Under the pieces are notes generated by a model. That model had not been told where the DNA came from and ran no database searches. It saw only the letters and a program-made list of their open reading frames with translations. A program made the translations under genes and the position numbers. 64,000 nt of DNA from Planctomycetia bacterium (GTDB taxonomy: Bacteria > Planctomycetota > Planctomycetia > Pirellulales > UBA1268), in assembly GCA_021414115.1 (NCBI GenBank), contig JAIOPD010000106.1, positions 24,147 to 88,146 on the forward strand, written 5' to 3'. Below, piece after piece: positions 390 to 58,826 of this stretch (positions are counted from its first letter, which is position 1; the number at the start of each line of letters is the position of its first letter).

Positions 390-628
390 TAGAGCGCATC
401 CGACTTTGGTGGAACGCCTGACGGGTGCCCGCGTGGTGGGTCGGGGCTGCCCGTGCCCTGAGAGCCGGACGCTCGCTTCGGGCATCCTTGCCCTCCGCTC
501 TCTGCACGCCGGCTGCGCTGCGCCATCCTGGCTTCGCGGGCCGCCGAGCCCGGCTCTCAGGGCACGGGCAGCCCCTCGCGGGTGTTCGTTGCTGGGGAAG
601 CCCGAAGCCGGAGGGACCCGCGAGCCAT
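390..628. repeat. Copy 1 of a structured intergenic repeat family: perfect 26-bp inverted arms 443-468 / 550-575 around an 81-nt loop, plus conserved flanks
   Basis: Shares four modules with the copies at 40019-40224 and 58511-58826: head TAGAGCGCATCCGAC(T/G)TTGGTGGA, arm GGGGCTGCCCGTGCCC..GAG.GCCGG, core CTGCGCT.CG.CATCCTG and tail GTTGC.GGGGAAGCCCG. Lies between the lutC stop (638) and the small ORF start (378). Confidence 0.8.
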
Positions 629-3626: not shown

Positions 3627-5666
3627 TCAGCTGCGGATGCCGACAACGCGCGACCAGGCGAGTTCGGACGGCCAGGTGCCGAACTGCGTGTTGGTGAAGG
3701 TGGATCCGGTGCTGCCGAGCACCCGCCAGATGCCGCTGGTGCCGTTGCGGACGGCGATGTCGCTCTTGCCGTCGCCGTTGAAGTCACCGACGGTGGCGAA
3801 CTGCCAAGGGACGGTGGTTCGCAGCACACCCCAGGTCGAGGTGATGAAGGAGGTGCCGGTGCTCAGCGAGACCCACCAGGCCCCGTCACTCGTCCGCTGG
3901 CCGGCGAGATCGGCGCGGCCGTCGGCGTTGAAGTCGCCGCTGACCACGTTCTGCCACGGCATGTCGCTCGGCCAAGTGCCGAACGAGGATTTGGTGAAGG
4001 TGGATCCCGTGCTGGCGAGGATCCACCAGATGCCGCTGGTGCCGTTGCGGACGGCGACGTCGCTCTTGCCGTCACCGTTGAAGTCGCCGGCCGTGGCGAA
4101 CTGCCAGGCGACGTTGGTGCGGAGAACTGCCCAGCTGGAGGTCGTGAAGGCGGAGCCGGTGCTCAGCGAGACCCACCATGCCCCGTCACTTGTCCGCTGG
4201 CCGACCAGGTCGGTCCGGCCATCGGCGTTGAAGTCGCCGCCGACCACGTTCTGCCAGGGTGTGCTCGACGACCAGGTGCCGAACTGGGAGGCGGTGAATG
4301 CGGAGCCGGTGCTGGTGAGAACACGCCAGATCCCGCTCGTGGCATTGCGGATGGCGATATCAGCCCGGCCATCAGCATTGAAGTCGCCGACGGTCGGGAA
4401 CTGCCAGGTGACGTCGGTCCGCTGGGTCGCCCAGAGCGTGGGCGCCGCTGCCGGGCCGGATGCCGGCGTCAGCGTCACCCACCAGCCACCGTTGGCGGCC
4501 CGCGTCGCCACATCGCCCCGGCCATCGCCATTGAAGTCGCCGGCCAGAGTGTCGACCCACGTGGTGCCTGCCGGGAGTGTGGCGAGCGGGGCGGTCGCGA
4601 AGGCGGTGCCCGTCGAGCGGCCGATGACCAGCGAGTCGCCGGCAAGCCCGACGATCGCATTGGGGACGACGGCGGGCGACGCCACCGTCACCGTGAAGGC
4701 ATCCTCGACGAATCGGGCGGCATCGAACACGCTCGTCGCACGAACCGTGACGGTTCCAGTGCCCACCGCCCCCGGGGCATAGACCAGCTGGAGACTGCCA
4801 TCGGCTTGAATCGTGGGCGTGACGAGCGCCGGCGAGTTGGTCGCCACGGAGTAGAGAAGTTCGCCCACGCGGGCGATCGTCGGAAACTTCACGAACTGAT
4901 TGGAAGTGAGCGCGGCGATTTCGACCGGGGCGTTCACGAACGACGGATCCTGGCTCGGATTCGCCCCCGGCACGTCACGCAGCGGGATGCTGTCGTAGGG
5001 CGACGCATAGCCGAACCGCGGCACGGCGGCGATGGCATCGACCGCGGCCATGCCGCCGCCCAGCACCCGGCCGAACGCCGTGAAGCCGCCGTTTTGAGTA
5101 TCGAGCTGGGGCCCCAGAGACTGCGTGGCGTTGGTGTCGGAGAGGTTGAAGAACCACTGGTTGGTGGCGCTGTTGGGATTGGTCCCGAGTTTCGCCATCG
5201 CGATCGTGCCGCGGACGTTGGTGTTGCCCGGCTCGTTCACCACCGCTGCAAACTGCGTGACGTTATCGATCGAGATTGGGCTGCCGCCGGTGACCGTGAA
5301 GCCGCCCCCCTGCACCACGAAGCCGGGAATGGAGCGGTGGATGAACGTGTTGGTGTAGTGGCCGCCGTCCACGTAGGAGAGGAAGTTGGCGACGGTGGCA
5401 GGCGTGGTCCGCGTGCGGTCGGCGCCCGGGGCGTCGAAGAGTTCGACGAACACCTTTTGATACGGCGACGGCGAGTTGACGTCGAACCGCACGACCGTGC
5501 CGGTGACGTCGGTGTCGTCGTAGCGGTTGGCCAGCGAGATGATCGCCGGGCCGGCGTTCGGCGCGGCCGTGACGTCGGGCAGGGCGGCGACCACGTCGAC
5601 GGCCAGCGCGCGGCGGTTCTCGAGCCGTTCGATCCGCCCGAAAAGCGTCCGCTTCCGCTTCATCAT
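3627..5666 (-). CDS. secreted cyclophilin-type peptidyl-prolyl isomerase fused to six FG-GAP/VCBS-like repeats
   Basis: N-terminus is [23 protein letters not shown]. Cyclophilin core: [15 protein letters not shown]...GTIAMAK...NQWFFNL...FGRV. Six GDFN(G/A)DG(R/K)xD repeats follow in the C-terminal 300 aa. Confidence 0.85.
3687..4286 (-). repeat. two tandem 300-bp units (each encoding two FG-GAP repeats) inside the PPIase gene, with a more diverged unit at 4287-4544
   Basis: Residues 461-560 and 561-660 align without gaps and are roughly four-fifths identical by eye ([26 protein letters not shown]... vs [26 protein letters not shown]...). The same periodicity shows in antisense track ORF 3637..4782. 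Confidence 0.7.
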
Positions 5667-19241: not shown

Positions 19242-19844
19242 CTAGCCGGCGGCCTTGGGGGTGGGCATGCGGTCGATCACCTCGTCGATCAGCCGATAGT
19301 CCCGCGCTTCCTGCGCCGACATAAACCGATCACGGTCCGTGTCCTGCTCGATCTTTTCCAGGGGATGCCCGGTGTGCTTGAGCAGGATGCCGTTGAGCTT
19401 GTGCTTGATGTTCTTGAATTCCTTGGCGTGGATCATGATCTCCTCCGCCGTGCCCTCCATGCCGGCGAGCGGCTGGTGGATCATGATCCGGGCGTTGGGC
19501 AGGGCCCGTCGCTTCCCCGGGGCACCAGCCGCCAGGAGCACGGCGCCCATCGAGGCCGCCTGACCGATGCAGTACGTGGCCACGTCGCAGGTCACGAACT
19601 GCATGGTGTCGTAGATGGCCAGCCCTGCCGTCACGCTCCCGCCCGGCGAGTTGATGTAGAGATGGATGTCGCTCTTGGGATCGTCCGACTGCAGGAAGAG
19701 CAGCTGTGCGACGATGGCATTGGCCATCTCGTCGTTGACCTGCGTGCCCAGGAACACGATGCGGTCCTTGAGCAGGCGGCTGTAGATGTCCATCGCCCGC
19801 TCTTCGCGGCCGCTCTTCTCGATGACATAGGGAATCAGGGGCAT
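19242..19844 (-). CDS. clpP: ATP-dependent Clp protease proteolytic subunit (paralog 1)
   Basis: [10 protein letters not shown]..., catalytic [11 protein letters not shown] (Ser), MIHQP (His) and [10 protein letters not shown] (Asp). Confidence 0.95.
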
Positions 19845-19884: not shown

Positions 19885-20541
19885 TTAGTCCTTCTCCTGC
19901 TCGTCGGCCACGACGGGCGGCTTGGTCAGCACCTCGTCGACGAGGCCGTATTCCTTCGCCTCCGTGGCGGACAAATAACGGTCGCGGTCGGTGTCTTTCT
20001 CGATCCGGTCGATTGGCTGGCCGGTATGGTTCGCGAGGATTTCGTTGAGCACCGCCCTGGTCTTGATGATCTCGTCGGCCTGGATCTCGATGTCGCTCAC
20101 CTGCCCGCCGACCTGGCCATAGGGCTGATGGATCATCACCTTGGCGTGCGGGAGCACAAACCGCTTCCCCTTGGCGCCGCCGGCGAGGAGCACCGCTCCG
20201 CCGCTGGCCGCGAGACCGACGCAGTAGGTGGCGACGGGGCACGAAAGGATCTGCATCGTGTCGTAGATCGCCATCGTGGCCGTGACGCTGCCGCCCGGCG
20301 AGTTGATGTAGAAGTGGATGTCCTTGCGGCGGTTTTCGCTCTGCAGATAGAGCAGCTTCATCACCAGCTCGTTGGCGTTGCCGTCGTAGATCTCGCCCTG
20401 CAGCAGGATGATCCGGTTTTCGAGCAGAAGGTCGCCGAGCGTCATCTGCCGCTGCCGCTGATAGTCGCGGTAGGCGGAGGAAGCGGAGACGTGCAGCGGC
20501 GAAGCAAGAGGCGTGTCGTGGCGGGCCATAGAGTTGATCAT
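19885..20541 (-). CDS. clpP: ATP-dependent Clp protease proteolytic subunit (paralog 2, about 30-aa N-terminal extension)
   Basis: [16 protein letters not shown] and [10 protein letters not shown], so the triad looks intact. An alternative ATG at 20529 is possible. Confidence 0.9.
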
Positions 20542-22200: not shown

Positions 22201-22273
22201 AGCGGGTGATGGGATTCGAACCCACGACAACCACGTTGGCAACGTGGTGCTCTACCAACTGAGCTACACCCGC
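22201..22273 (-). tRNA. tRNA-Gly (anticodon GCC), 73 nt, CCA not encoded
   Basis: The reverse complement reads GCGGGTG-TA-GCTC-AGTTGGTA-GAGC-A-CCACG-TTGCCAA-CGTGG-TTGTC-GTGGG-TTCGAAT-CCCAT-CACCCGC-T. This gives a full cloverleaf, a TTCGAAT T-loop and a U discriminator; the next bases are TCG. Confidence 0.9.
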
Positions 22274-38980: not shown

Positions 38981-40014
38981 ATCCCCAAGCCATCTGCCGC
39001 ATCCACCCCGCCTCGCCGCTGCGGACCGAGGGGGTCGATTTTCTCGGCAGCGTGTTTCCTGAGCACGCGTTCCCTCCGGTCATGGGCACCGGCGACGACT
39101 TCCGGGCCGCCTGCCGCCGCGGCTATGCCGCCATGGGGGAATCGCGGGTCGCGATCGCGGGATTGGCCCGAAACGTCGGCGGCGTCCTGCCGCTGACCAT
39201 CCGGCGGATCGAGGACCTCGGCCGGTGGTTCGCCGACTACCGCGTCTTTGTCTATGAAAATGACTCGAGCGACGACACCCGGCCTCTGCTCGGGAGTTGG
39301 ACGCGGTCCAATCCCCGGGTGCATGTCACCTGCGAGGATCTCCGCGACCCGGTCAATCCCACCACCCGCTGCATCGCGCGGGCCGAACGGATGGCCTTCT
39401 ACCGCCACCGCTGCCAGCAGGACGTGCTCGCCCGCTGCGGCCGCTTCGACTTCACGATCCTCATCGATCTCGACATCCTCGGCGGCTGGAGCATCGACGG
39501 CATCGCCAACAGTTTCGGCCACCACGGCTGGGATTTCGTCGGCTCCAACGGACTCATCTATCGCCGCGACGGACTCGCGATGAACGCGCTGCGGCAGTAC
39601 GACACCTGGGCGCTACGGTTCGACGGCGACCTCACGCCGCTGTCGACGTCCGCGGCCGGCGGCCTCGTCTATGGCCGCGGCACGCCGCTCGTCCCCGTCA
39701 CCTCGTGCTTCGGCGGCCTCGGCATCTATACGATGGATGCGTACGGGGCCGGGCGATATGCCACCGACGATCTCGAGCACGCGACGTTCCACCGCGAGTT
39801 GATCGCCCGCGGTCGCTCGCGACTGTTTCTCAATCCGAGTCAGATCCTCGTCTATGGCCGCCGGCGGCGGTTCGGTGACCGGACGGTCGTGCGGCTCCTC
39901 GATGCCTGGGCCGCCGTGTCGGGGCGGCGAGAGCGAACGCTCTTTCCCCCCGGCGGCCGGCCGCACGGTGTCGATCGGGCGGCCGACGAAGTCGCCATCC
40001 GCGCCGCCGCGTAG
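38977..40014 (+). CDS. hypothetical protein, possibly GT-A-like glycosyltransferase (weak resemblance to the CAP59/CMT1 type)
   Basis: YRVFVYENDSSDDTRPLL and ILIDLDILGGWS acidic motifs. Translationally coupled to the GT4 gene (ATGA at 38977-38980). Family assignment is a guess. Confidence 0.45.
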   Translation: MNPQAICRIHPASPLRTEGVDFLGSVFPEHAFPPVMGTGDDFRAACRRGYAAMGESRVAIAGLARNVGGVLPLTIRRIEDLGRWFADYRVFVYENDSSDDTRPLLGSWTRSNPRVHVTCEDLRDPVNPTTRCIARAERMAFYRHRCQQDVLARCGRFDFTILIDLDILGGWSIDGIANSFGHHGWDFVGSNGLIYRRDGLAMNALRQYDTWALRFDGDLTPLSTSAAGGLVYGRGTPLVPVTSCFGGLGIYTMDAYGAGRYATDDLEHATFHRELIARGRSRLFLNPSQILVYGRRRRFGDRTVVRLLDAWAAVSGRRERTLFPPGGRPHGVDRAADEVAIRAAA

Positions 40015-40018
40015 GCCA

Positions 40019-40224
40019 AGACTTTGGTGGCTCGGGGCTGCCCGTGCCCCGAGGGCCGGACGTTCGCGTCGGGCATCACGCCCGCCGCTCTCTGCATGTC
40101 CGCTGCGCTTCGGCATCCTGCCTTCGCTCGCTCCCATAGCCCGGCTCTCGGGGCTCGGGGCAGCCCCTCGCGGGTTCTCGATGGTGTCCGTTGCCGGGGA
40201 AGCCCGGAGCGCAAGCGACGGGTA
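40019..40224. repeat. Copy 2 of the structured intergenic repeat (arms 40034-40059 / 40141-40167; lacks part of the 5' flank; arms degenerate)
   Basis: Begins 5 nt after the TAG stop at 40012-40014. GACTTTGGTGG, the arm, the CTGCGCTTCGGCATCCTGCC core and the GTTGCCGGGGAAGCCCGGAGCGCAAGCGACGGGTA tail align with copies 1 and 3. Confidence 0.8.
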
Positions 40225-58023: not shown

Positions 58024-58513
58024 GAGCGACGAATCGTCCCGTCCTGCCGTTGCGATCACCTTCGAGTGTACGCCCCTGCGGAGCGTGCCTCGGCTCGACA
58101 TCCCGCTCGATGCGTCTCCCGTCTACCGGGTTCGGCTCGGGAGGATGCAGCAGGCGGTGGCCCGGCACGGTACCCGAAACACGTACTATCTGACGGACGG
58201 CAGTTGCACTTTTTGTTTTACCAACGATCCGCAGGTGGGGTGGGCGCGGTTCCGGTTCGAGGGCACCCTGCTCACCGACGACACCGACTCCAGAACGATC
58301 GGCGCCGATCTCGAGATCGCCCTCGATCAGGAGACGTGCGACTGGCTGACCCAGCCTGCGGTCGAGTGGCTCAGACTCTCGGCCAAGCGGGCCGTCGAAG
58401 TCGAGTTCGACCGCTACATCGCCGCGGGTGACCTCTCGCGGGCGCTGGAGCGCCTGGCACGCGAGCAGGCCGCCAGCGACGCCGCCGGCGGTTACCTCGG
58501 CATGAATCTCTAG
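58022..58513 (+). CDS. hypothetical protein (163 aa)
   Basis: Balanced, non-repetitive composition (…YYLTDGSCTFCFTNDPQVGWARFRFEGTLL…AVEVEFDRYIAAGD…). Its ATG (58022-58024) overlaps the apbE start codon on the other strand. Its TAG stop is the first triplet of repeat copy 3. Confidence 0.45.
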   Translation: MSDESSRPAVAITFECTPLRSVPRLDIPLDASPVYRVRLGRMQQAVARHGTRNTYYLTDGSCTFCFTNDPQVGWARFRFEGTLLTDDTDSRTIGADLEIALDQETCDWLTQPAVEWLRLSAKRAVEVEFDRYIAAGDLSRALERLAREQAASDAAGGYLGMNL

Positions 58514-58826
58514 AGCGCATCCGACGTTGGTGGATCGCTTGACGGGGGCCCGAGTGGTGGGTCGGGGCTGCCCGTGCCCCGTGAGCCGGACGTTCGCTTC
58601 GCCAATCTGGCTGTCACGCCGTCGCCGCCGTCGGCTCGGGGCTGCCCGTGCCCCGTGAGCCGGACGTTCGCTTCGCCCATCCTGGGCTTCGCTCACTCGA
58701 TGCTGCCTGCGCTTCGGCATCCTGCCTGCGCTGGCCAGCAACGCCGGCTCTCGGGGCACGGGCAGCCCCTCGCGGGTTCTCGATTGTGTCGGTTGCTGGG
58801 GAAGCCCGGAGCGCGAGCGACGGGTA
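58511..58826. repeat. Copy 3 of the structured intergenic repeat, with the left arm duplicated (58564-58589 and 58638-58663) and a single right arm (58744-58769)
   Basis: The head TAGAGCGCATCCGACGTTGGTGGA matches copy 1 apart from one T/G difference. The 42-bp stretches 58562-58603 and 58636-58677 are identical. The tail GTTGCTGGGGAAGCCCGGAGCGCGAGCGACGGGTA matches copy 2. Confidence 0.85.

Follow-up and report, generated by a model that had tools for sequence, protein, structure and literature searches.

The 64,000-nt stretch of Planctomycetia bacterium contig JAIOPD010000106.1 analysed here (the window) carries copies of a ~142-nt interspersed, non-coding, hairpin-forming repeat, one family that, as far as sampled, is restricted to freshwater Planctomycetota of a single clade. 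The element adopts a three-way-junction fold in which every helix is kept by compensatory substitutions, and the folding constraint acts on one strand only. Its copies are confined to spacers with a gene 3' end, and their orientation is blind to the neighbouring genes and follows local GC skew. The reading we favour, which we hold with about even confidence, is that of a non-autonomous selfish DNA repeat that folds as a single strand in the manner of repetitive extragenic palindromic (REP) sequences and the hairpins formed by REP doublets (REPINs), set in mosaics like the bacterial interspersed mosaic elements (BIMEs). The family, previously undescribed, adds to the known class of structured interspersed palindromic repeats, of which there are barely any descriptions from this phylum.

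Extent and divergence of the family

An initial annotation had described three intergenic copies of a single element composed of four ordered modules (a head, a left arm, a core, and a right arm with a tail) at 390-628, 40019-40224 and 58511-58826. The three copies are present at these coordinates. A cmsearch of the window with a covariance model (R1) built from relatives returned exactly three full copies (106-135 bits, E 1e-18 to 4e-24); a loose 16-mer search of the window (up to 3 mismatches) gave 7 matches against 4.2 expected, which alone is not significant. Throughout, we designate the strand whose loops read GGA as the F (folding) strand, which is the minus strand of the window. The cores and their parts are as follows.

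438-580, minus (F) strand: core of copy 1, the 142-nt element (cmsearch with model R1, 107.6 bits, E 1.2e-18)
443-468: outer-stem arm of copy 1, pairing with 550-575 as a perfect 26-bp inverted repeat
550-575: second outer-stem arm of copy 1, partner of 443-468
480-493, minus strand: inner hairpin P2 of copy 1, reading GGGCAAGGATGCCC, with loop GGA
522-532, minus strand: inner hairpin P3b of copy 1, reading GCCAGGATGGC, borne on the variable helix P3a
40029-40172, minus strand: core of copy 2 (cmsearch, 105.9 bits, E 2.7e-18)
58633-58774, minus strand: core of copy 3 (cmsearch, 135.1 bits, E 3.9e-24)
58564-58632, minus strand: extra partial copy, one (left) arm plus ~45 nt, abutting the full copy 3

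The arms of copy 1 were correctly annotated as a perfect inverted repeat with 81 nt between them. Two details had been missed, namely the partial copy beside copy 3 and the 1-nt insertion and single mismatch in the right arm of copy 2 (40141-40167). The layout of a full copy with a terminal fragment was also observed in loci L015, L053, L078, L081, L083 and L099.

A pattern scan with the arm sequence, covering one genome per species, identified at least 99 loci, nearly all of them in metagenome-assembled genomes (MAGs) of freshwater Planctomycetota. Among the matches listed, host MAGs were mostly labelled Pirellulales, Planctomycetaceae or similar, and a single MAG contributed up to at least 10 loci. 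Many matches fell at contig ends, which is expected of an assembly-breaking repeat. One contig of 4820 nt (L029) is as a whole a perfect fold-back, the at least 80 nt to one side of the element being exactly the reverse complement of those to the other; this is almost certainly an artefact that the hairpin seeded during assembly. Searching with model R1 recovered about 120 copies, and we estimate that genomes carry from tens to a few hundred each. With metagenome loci included, the family was found at more than 100 loci. Further copies were thus seen in relatives by pattern scan, BLAST and cmsearch. The four modules, on the other hand, did not hold together as one element: by BLAST coverage the family shares only the arm-to-arm core (window 437-581), with head and tail dropping out, and across the ~120 copies the conserved part is the core with 4-5 nt on each side.

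Searches further afield gave no match to the 142-nt element in a plasmid collection (blastn, distant mode) or in viral contigs (pattern scan), and literature searches for this element in Planctomycetes found no description. Rfam 15, which the initial annotation had suggested consulting (as Rfam), placed no RNA family at the copies: the window copies were unmatched at the gathering threshold, and scans of copies 1 and 3 at E-values up to 10 gave chance-level matches only. A coding function was ruled out by the frame-breaking indels that distinguish the copies.

Mean identity of copies was 85% within a genome and 81% between genomes. The highest identity within a genome, 96%, was that of a tandem pair, and the best match of a copy usually lay in another genome; the core of copy 3, for example, is 93% identical to a copy in L059. 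The copy population is old, with shared subfamilies defined mostly by helix P3a.

Architecture and covariation

Folds of individual copies and the alignment together gave one architecture, consisting of an outer stem (P1), a three-way junction and two hairpins (P2 and P3). P1 comprises 21 bp, a small internal loop and five invariant pairs (GCCGG/CCGGC), and is closed on the F strand by a tandem G·A pair and two further base pairs. P2 completes the junction, whilst P3 is a variable 8-10-bp helix, P3a, with hairpin P3b on it. P2 and P3b are near-duplicates, each with a GC, a symmetric G-N-A/G-N-A loop, a 4-5-bp stem and an NGA triloop, the loop being GGA in 68-85% of copies and CGA in 13-27%. 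The ends are sharp, reading 5'-GC(GA|TC)GGGG...CCCC(GA|TC)GCC-3' with conservation stopping there, and at these ends the tandem G·A/A·G pair alternates with Watson-Crick pairs among copies.

Covariation was assessed on a 91-copy alignment (A2) in its reverse complement (A3). The 53 pairs of A3 were 92.9% paired, 29 of them with double-sided changes, and the 332 compensatory cells compared with 98.7±7.2 in shuffles, none of 500 shuffles reaching as high a count. In slid controls pairing fell to about 35%. Covariation extended to the inner hairpins; at A3 columns 98/107 in the P2 stem, for instance, C-G was found in 42 copies and G-C in 40. The arm pattern scan had fixed one arm, and we therefore retested covariation on 28 copies (A4) obtained independently of that pattern, from a protein-anchored metagenome search with the 163-aa open reading frame (ORF) next to copy 3, which yielded 80 orthologous loci. 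In A4, pairing was 90.4%, with double-sided changes in 36 of 53 pairs, including 15 of the 21 outer-stem pairs. The compensatory change claimed at arm position 17, where copy 1 has T:A and the other two copies C:G, is genuine, and more copies behave likewise: the corresponding A4 pair (columns 23/165) is U-A in 11/28 copies and C-G in 9/28.

The arms were also considered as REP palindromes in their own right. GGGGC-N7-GCCCC was paired in 75.1% of cells compared with 74.7±0.9% in shuffles, so that this palindrome is not maintained. Both arms on the F strand are preceded by a similar short leader (e.g. window 576-592 and 459-472, minus strand), reading CGA(G)AAC..GCGA before the 5' arm and GCGAACGUCCGGC(GA) before the 3' arm. 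Fragments consisting of leader and arm occur singly beside full copies, and this combination may be the unit recognized by a protein.

Folding on one strand

Non-canonical pairs were distributed unequally between the strands. The F strand of A3 had 121 G·U pairs against 35 A·C, that of A4 had 63 against 9, and G·A likewise exceeded C·T on this strand, 82 to 15. Under RNA parameters, 62 of 65 copies were more stable on the F strand (mean difference -8.8 kcal/mol). For the three window copies, DNA parameters gave folds of about equal quality on the two strands, with single-strand z-scores of -4.4 to -8.5; the core of copy 1 reaches -61.2 kcal/mol (z -7.7). G·T and G·A pairs are stable in DNA as well. 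The stability advantage of the F strand was alike in the sense and antisense copies of tandem spacers (p = 0.78), which argues against selection on read-through mRNA. Mutational bias was rejected as a source of the G·U excess: the transitions in excess run from C to T on the F strand, but the flanks on that strand are rich in C and A, contrary to what is expected of a strand exposed to deamination.

Genomic context and orientation

Genes were called with a purpose-written codon-usage gene caller, checked against the window, and genomic context was examined for the 65 copies with called genes on both sides. Convergent spacers held 32 of these and tandem spacers another 32, with one copy in a divergent spacer and none within a gene. 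The tandem-spacer copies were split evenly into 16 sense and 16 antisense, and lay closer to the stop codon of the upstream gene. All three window copies are likewise intergenic, as had been annotated, and their flanking genes are a LUD-domain gene (lutC), a 61-aa ORF, a 345-aa ORF, a MoxR AAA ATPase, the 163-aa ORF and rsmG/GidB; Pfam gives no match for the 345-aa and 163-aa ORFs, and looking up the 163-aa ORF exactly in a contig index found no entry.

Orientation was instead related to base composition. GC skew of the flanks (roughly 8 kb, read on the F strand) was negative in 55 of 76 loci (p = 1e-4) and uncorrelated with gene strand, and neighbouring copies more than 500 nt apart shared their orientation in 15 of 19 pairs. 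The window obeys the trend, with a plus-strand GC skew of +0.025 and all three F strands on the minus strand. An excess of G over C usually marks the leading strand; if it does so here, the better-folding strand would lie mostly on the leading-strand template.

Turnover at an orthologous spacer

The convergent spacer between the 163-aa ORF and rsmG, which holds copy 3, allowed occupancy to be compared between relatives (74-93% amino-acid identity). Its length ranges from -3 to 886 nt; the window has 435 nt, whilst the closest relative, L100, has 120 nt and no element. The element was found here in about 30 loci, at differing offsets, in either orientation and sometimes in two copies. The element is accordingly present, absent, doubled or inverted at this site between related lineages. 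An apparently empty site in L103 keeps GCAG|CCCCGAGCC, in which the last 9-13 nt of the element are left behind, and results from a deletion between two GCAG repeats at the hairpin base of an L106-like sequence; this is loss by slippage and not clean excision. In L105 and L108, relative to L102 and L106, a cassette comprising the element and a second palindromic repeat of about 170 nt is inverted. Elsewhere, element-free orthologous spacers were seen in comparisons of L044 with L046 and of L014 with L025, and conserved occupancy of orthologous sites in L050/L051 and L078/L031. No target-site duplication was detected among 109 copies at offsets of 0-8 nt and lengths of 2-9 bp.

The ORF163/rsmG spacer also holds other repeats. 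The second palindromic repeat just mentioned reads …CGGAGGCACGCGCAGAAGCCGGTGACACTTGTG…CACAAGTGCCGCCGGCGCCGAGCATGTCTCCGGCCGGCTGCGG (L102 3520-3680, L105 3690-3860, L106 and L108), and in L136 (652-930) the spacer contains two tandem copies of another palindromic repeat of ~100 nt, ATAAAAGCCCCCAGGCGC.AGCCGGGGGATGATG…CATGGGGGCTT. This spacer is a general sink for repeats.

Neighbouring repeat modules

The spacers that hold the element are BIME-like mosaics, in which the 142-nt element is the largest and most structured module. The composite of the initial annotation resolves into three different repeat modules, the other two being its head and tail, found at these positions in the window.

390-437, plus strand: head module of copy 1, TAGAGCGCATCCGAC...GGTGGGTC, outside the family-wide element
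596-620, plus strand: tail of copy 1, a degenerate REP-like hairpin, GGAAGCCCGAAGCCGGAGGGACCCG, aligning poorly with the Planctopirus limnophila REP
40020-40030, plus strand: head remnant of copy 2 (11 nt), GACTTTGGTGG
40198-40222, plus strand: tail of copy 2, a small REP hairpin (-17.1 kcal/mol) containing G·A mismatches, with loop GCAA
58511-58563, plus strand: head module of copy 3, whose first three bases are the TAG stop of the 163-aa ORF
58800-58824, plus strand: tail of copy 3, a small REP hairpin with CCCGG, a G·A/G·A mismatch pair, GC and a GCGA loop

The head is a third, rare module and not part of the element. Beyond the window (390-437 and 58511-58563) it was found only in L003 (5195-5247) and, in part, in L112 (1808-1831). 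Within it, the motif TAGAGCGCATCCGAC (window 390-413 and 58511-58534; L003 5195-5218; L112 1808-1831) begins with a TAG that ends an upstream reading frame, and in L003 and L112 this TAG follows coding-like sequence. The stop codons noted at the copies were read correctly: TAG at 58511-58513 terminates the 163-aa ORF, and copy 2 begins 5-6 nt past the TAG stop at 40012-40014.

The tail is likewise separate, being a small REP hairpin that also occurs without the core, for example in L124, L130 and L131. A Planctopirus limnophila REP, CACGAGCCGGAAGCGTGAGCGACGGGT, is listed beside a class 3 TnpA-Y1 gene by Quentin et al. 2018 (PMC6006769, Table S1). The tails of copies 2 and 3 both align with it at 21/25 identity, which for copy 3 (58800-58824) means 21 of 25 aligned positions. 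In its short hairpin, G·A mismatches, GNRA-type loop and similar sequence the tail module corresponds to a class 3 REP, but its foot in the window reads GGAAG and not CnGAG (the class 3 REP foot being CnGA), and the fetched DNA is without a class 3 gene. About 20-25% of MAG copies have a related REP with a GGAAG foot alongside, for the most part in one and the same relative orientation; such REPs also occur alone.

Canonical GTAG-type REPs (GTAGCACAGGTTTTCAACCTGTGCC) are interleaved with the GGAAG-foot REPs around the element, which they adjoin, often on both sides, in L059, L021, L013, L005, L012, L026, L087 and L104. Their presence beside the element suggests that the host genomes probably also carry a RAYT/REP system; GTAG-type REPs are known in the Planctomycetes-Verrucomicrobia-Chlamydiae (PVC) group (PMC3733652).

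Search for a mobilizing enzyme

In line with the initial annotation, no transposase was found near the copies in the window or in the 179 loci examined. Searching the same DNA by tblastn for RAYT and IS608 TnpA and with HUH...Y motif expressions gave no match, although this is a weak test. Genes between close copy pairs, inspected for an arrangement resembling a REPtron, in which the repeats flank a cognate single-copy RAYT or TnpA-REP gene, were all housekeeping genes (e.g. tatC, rtcB, gltX, acs). Class 3 Y1 genes are found principally in Planctomycetes and have high-copy atypical hairpins at their flanks (PMC6006769).

Comparison with known repeat systems

The closest parallels are the REP, REPIN and BIME sequences, the RAYT- or TnpA-REP-associated repeats of Proteobacteria (PMC3116915, PMC3733652, PMC6006769). 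As in those, there are tens to hundreds of extragenic copies, arranged in mosaics with other small repeats; convergent and 3' spacers are preferred and divergent ones avoided; target-site duplications are absent; and populations are old, diverged and vertically persisting. Two inverted arms form a long hairpin (21+5 bp) kept by compensatory change, as the two inverted units of a REPIN do. A REP unit is a 20-40-nt imperfect palindrome with a 5' GT[AG]G foot, whereas the element has feet reading GC(GA|TC), no GTAG or GTGG foot, and arms that are not conserved palindromes in themselves. For these reasons we say that it works like a REPIN and do not call it one. It also differs in that the 'spacer' between its arms is no loose linker but a conserved, covarying three-way junction with two near-identical NGA-loop hairpins, and in that a RAYT gene was not found in the fetched loci or the window.

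A second comparison is with the 'atypical' REPs associated with class 3 TnpA-Y1 in Planctomycetes, Acidobacteria and Legionella (Quentin et al. 2018, PMC6006769). Apart from the shared host phylum, the tails of copies 2 and 3 resemble these in short stem, G·A mismatches and GNRA-type loop, and the 142-nt core resembles them in its G·A-bounded loops and in a GCGA or CnGA-like foot 5' of each arm on the F strand. The core is nevertheless five times larger and absent from PMC6006769. Tail and core also differ in strand, the GNRA-loop strand of the tail REP being plus in the window and the folding strand of the core minus.

Among other short palindromic repeats, the element recalls ERIC/IRU (127 bp) and the Neisseria Correia/NEMIS elements, which are imperfect palindromes of ~100-150 nt in transcribed spacers, in both orientations, and whose hairpins can affect mRNA stability or processing. 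Correia elements have 26-bp inverted ends, which are terminal inverted repeats of the DDE type, and a duplicated TA target. The sequence of the element is unrelated to either group, and it lacks a target-site duplication to set beside the TA duplication of Correia; to our knowledge, neither group has been reported with a covarying three-way junction or a one-strand fold.

Strand-specific folding, the lack of target-site duplication and an orientation tied to replication are shared with PATEs, miniature elements derived from IS200/IS605, and with integron attC sites, both of which act as folded single strands. The bottom strands of sedentary integron attC sites are reported to lie on the leading-strand template, the direction seen for the F strand of the element, which we regard as a lead. 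IS608 presents the reverse case, its folding (active) strand lying on the G-rich lagging-strand template, so that the element differs from IS608-type elements in direction. No tnpA, tnpB or intI lies near the copies. The element also lacks the R''/R' core sites (RYYYAAC / GTTRRRY) of attC, which lie in arrays of promoterless cassettes next to intI, its own ends reading GCGAGGGG...CCCCGAGC, and its neighbours (lutC, MoxR ATPase, rsmG, tatC, gltX), in mixed orientation, are housekeeping genes and not cassettes.

Interpretation

Of the candidates listed by the initial annotation, a REP/BIME-like or other non-autonomous mobile element is the best supported, and a terminator or small RNA is weakened by the even split of sense and antisense copies and by a strand-specific fold that is equally strong in both orientations. 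The element would be non-autonomous selfish DNA in the REP/REPIN manner, its F-strand fold read as single-stranded DNA at the replication fork by an HUH/Y1 enzyme encoded in trans, most obviously a class 3 TnpA or a protein of the RAYT type. Copies would survive only where promoters and coding sequence stay undisrupted, and any effects on transcript 3' ends would be a by-product of the hairpin. We prefer this reading to an RNA gene or a DDE-mobilized MITE (a miniature transposable element with inverted repeats) because of the 3' extragenic placement, the gene-blind and replication-tied orientation, the lack of target-site duplication, the variable occupancy and the mosaic partners, and because the phylum has an unstudied Y1 class with high-copy atypical hairpins.

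Several results weigh against it. The mobilizing enzyme is pure inference, since the fetched loci, about 1.06 Mb in all, yielded neither an HUH/Y1 gene nor that of any other transposase. The F strand lies on the C-rich strand, a bias opposite in direction to that of IS608. Near-identical copies are absent within genomes, the tandem pair at 96% aside, and there has been no recent burst. No clean insertion junction was seen between empty and occupied spacers, the sole alignable 'empty' site being the deletion remnant in L103 and the other empty spacers being too diverged for alignment, so that gains are deduced from differing position and orientation, and part of that difference is explained by inversion of the whole cassette (L105/L108 compared with L102/L106). 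Finally, the depth of covariation and the invariant junction sequences (e.g. GCGAACGUCCGGCGA) are also to be expected of a functional RNA.

The last point introduces the strongest alternative, a functional structured RNA, which we consider doubtful overall although it retains real weight. On this view an F-strand transcript would arise, either from a promoter belonging to the element or within 3' untranslated regions, and the junction with its GGA-loop hairpins would bind a protein or else protect or terminate transcripts. The very strong covariation of all helices, the restriction of G·U wobble and tandem G·A motifs to one strand, invariant single-stranded segments in the junction and the position of every copy downstream of at least one stop codon all fit such an RNA, but DNA too forms stable G·T and G·A pairs, and no Rfam family matched. 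CsrA is a candidate partner: it prefers GGA motifs placed in the loops of hairpins and spaced about 10-60 nt, and GGA is the loop in 68-85% of copies. One MAG rich in the element encodes a CsrA homologue (L028 1130-1306, minus strand), about 0.9 kb from an element copy and with 47-52% identity to E. coli and B. subtilis CsrA. The 13-27% of loops that read CGA would not be expected, from the specificity of CsrA, to bind it. More generally, an RNA must explain why orientation is random to flanking genes, since at 16:16 a read-through mRNA would carry the 'wrong' strand half the time, with an F-strand bias equally strong in antisense copies; it must also explain how the element can be dispensable and flipped at an orthologous site. 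In addition, there is no conserved promoter-like motif upstream, where conservation ends 4-5 nt beyond the stem, and orientation follows GC skew, a property of DNA.

It is unlikely, in our view, that the element is a host-domesticated DNA structure, now immobile, that would serve chromosome organization, relieve supercoiling where genes converge or act in the extrusion of hairpins linked to replication. By analogy with BIMEs, to which gyrase, IHF and Pol I bind, such a role might be read into the 32 of 65 copies between convergent genes, the orientation bias relative to GC skew, the old, diverged copies with subfamilies common to several species, and the conserved occupancy of some orthologous sites. 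Against this, close relatives differ greatly at one orthologous spacer in whether, and in how many copies, the element is present, a pure duplex role would not select one-strand G·T and G·A pairs or compensation in the inner hairpins, and no binding-protein motif was identified.

A classical MITE, that is, an internally deleted insertion sequence moved by a DDE transposase through 26-bp terminal inverted repeats, would account for a multicopy, intergenic element of ~140 nt with long inverted ends starting GGGG, but is highly improbable, in line with the case that the initial annotation had made against a simple MITE bounded by such repeats: no target-site duplication was found at any offset or length tested; the stem runs 4 nt past GGGG with covarying pairs, so that GGGG is not the terminus; the interior is conserved, structured and covarying, which a DDE MITE has no need of; no insertion sequence with matching ends and no transposase occurred in the fetched loci, the solo arms being fragments beside full copies; and near-identical copies are lacking.

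Other features of the window

The sole Rfam match in the window is a tRNA gene at 22201-22273 on the minus strand (RF00005, 74 bits). Three 300-nt tandem repeats (83% and 60% identity) with a 150-nt sub-period occupy 3639-4538, within a minus-strand gene at 3627-5666 whose protein carries a repeated domain. The segments 19471-19741 and 20123-20393 are 70% identical and belong to adjacent minus-strand genes (19242-19844 and 19885-20541), a similarity that indicates a local gene duplication.

Significance

Planctomycetota are poorly explored for non-coding and mobile DNA, and the element is abundant enough to break short-read assemblies and conserved across many species. Should it be no more than selfish DNA of the REPIN kind, its main contribution is to show a known phenomenon in a further phylum. 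Its covariation signal is among the clearest obtainable for a repeat and carries a warning that strong covariation alone is no proof of an RNA gene. The covariance model can be used to mask or annotate these repeats in MAGs.

A more far-reaching possibility, to which we attach a low probability, is that the element is a structured nucleic acid with a dedicated role, specific to one strand and partnered by a conserved protein. This could take the form of the first defined non-autonomous substrate of a class 3 HUH-Y1 enzyme, with an orientation rule relative to replication opposite to that of IS608. Alternatively, it could represent an RNA module in dispersed copies, its two GGA-loop hairpins providing a genome-wide CsrA-type binding platform at Planctomycetota mRNA 3' ends. 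The element provides a handle for testing the function of the unstudied class 3 HUH-Y1 proteins of Planctomycetota.

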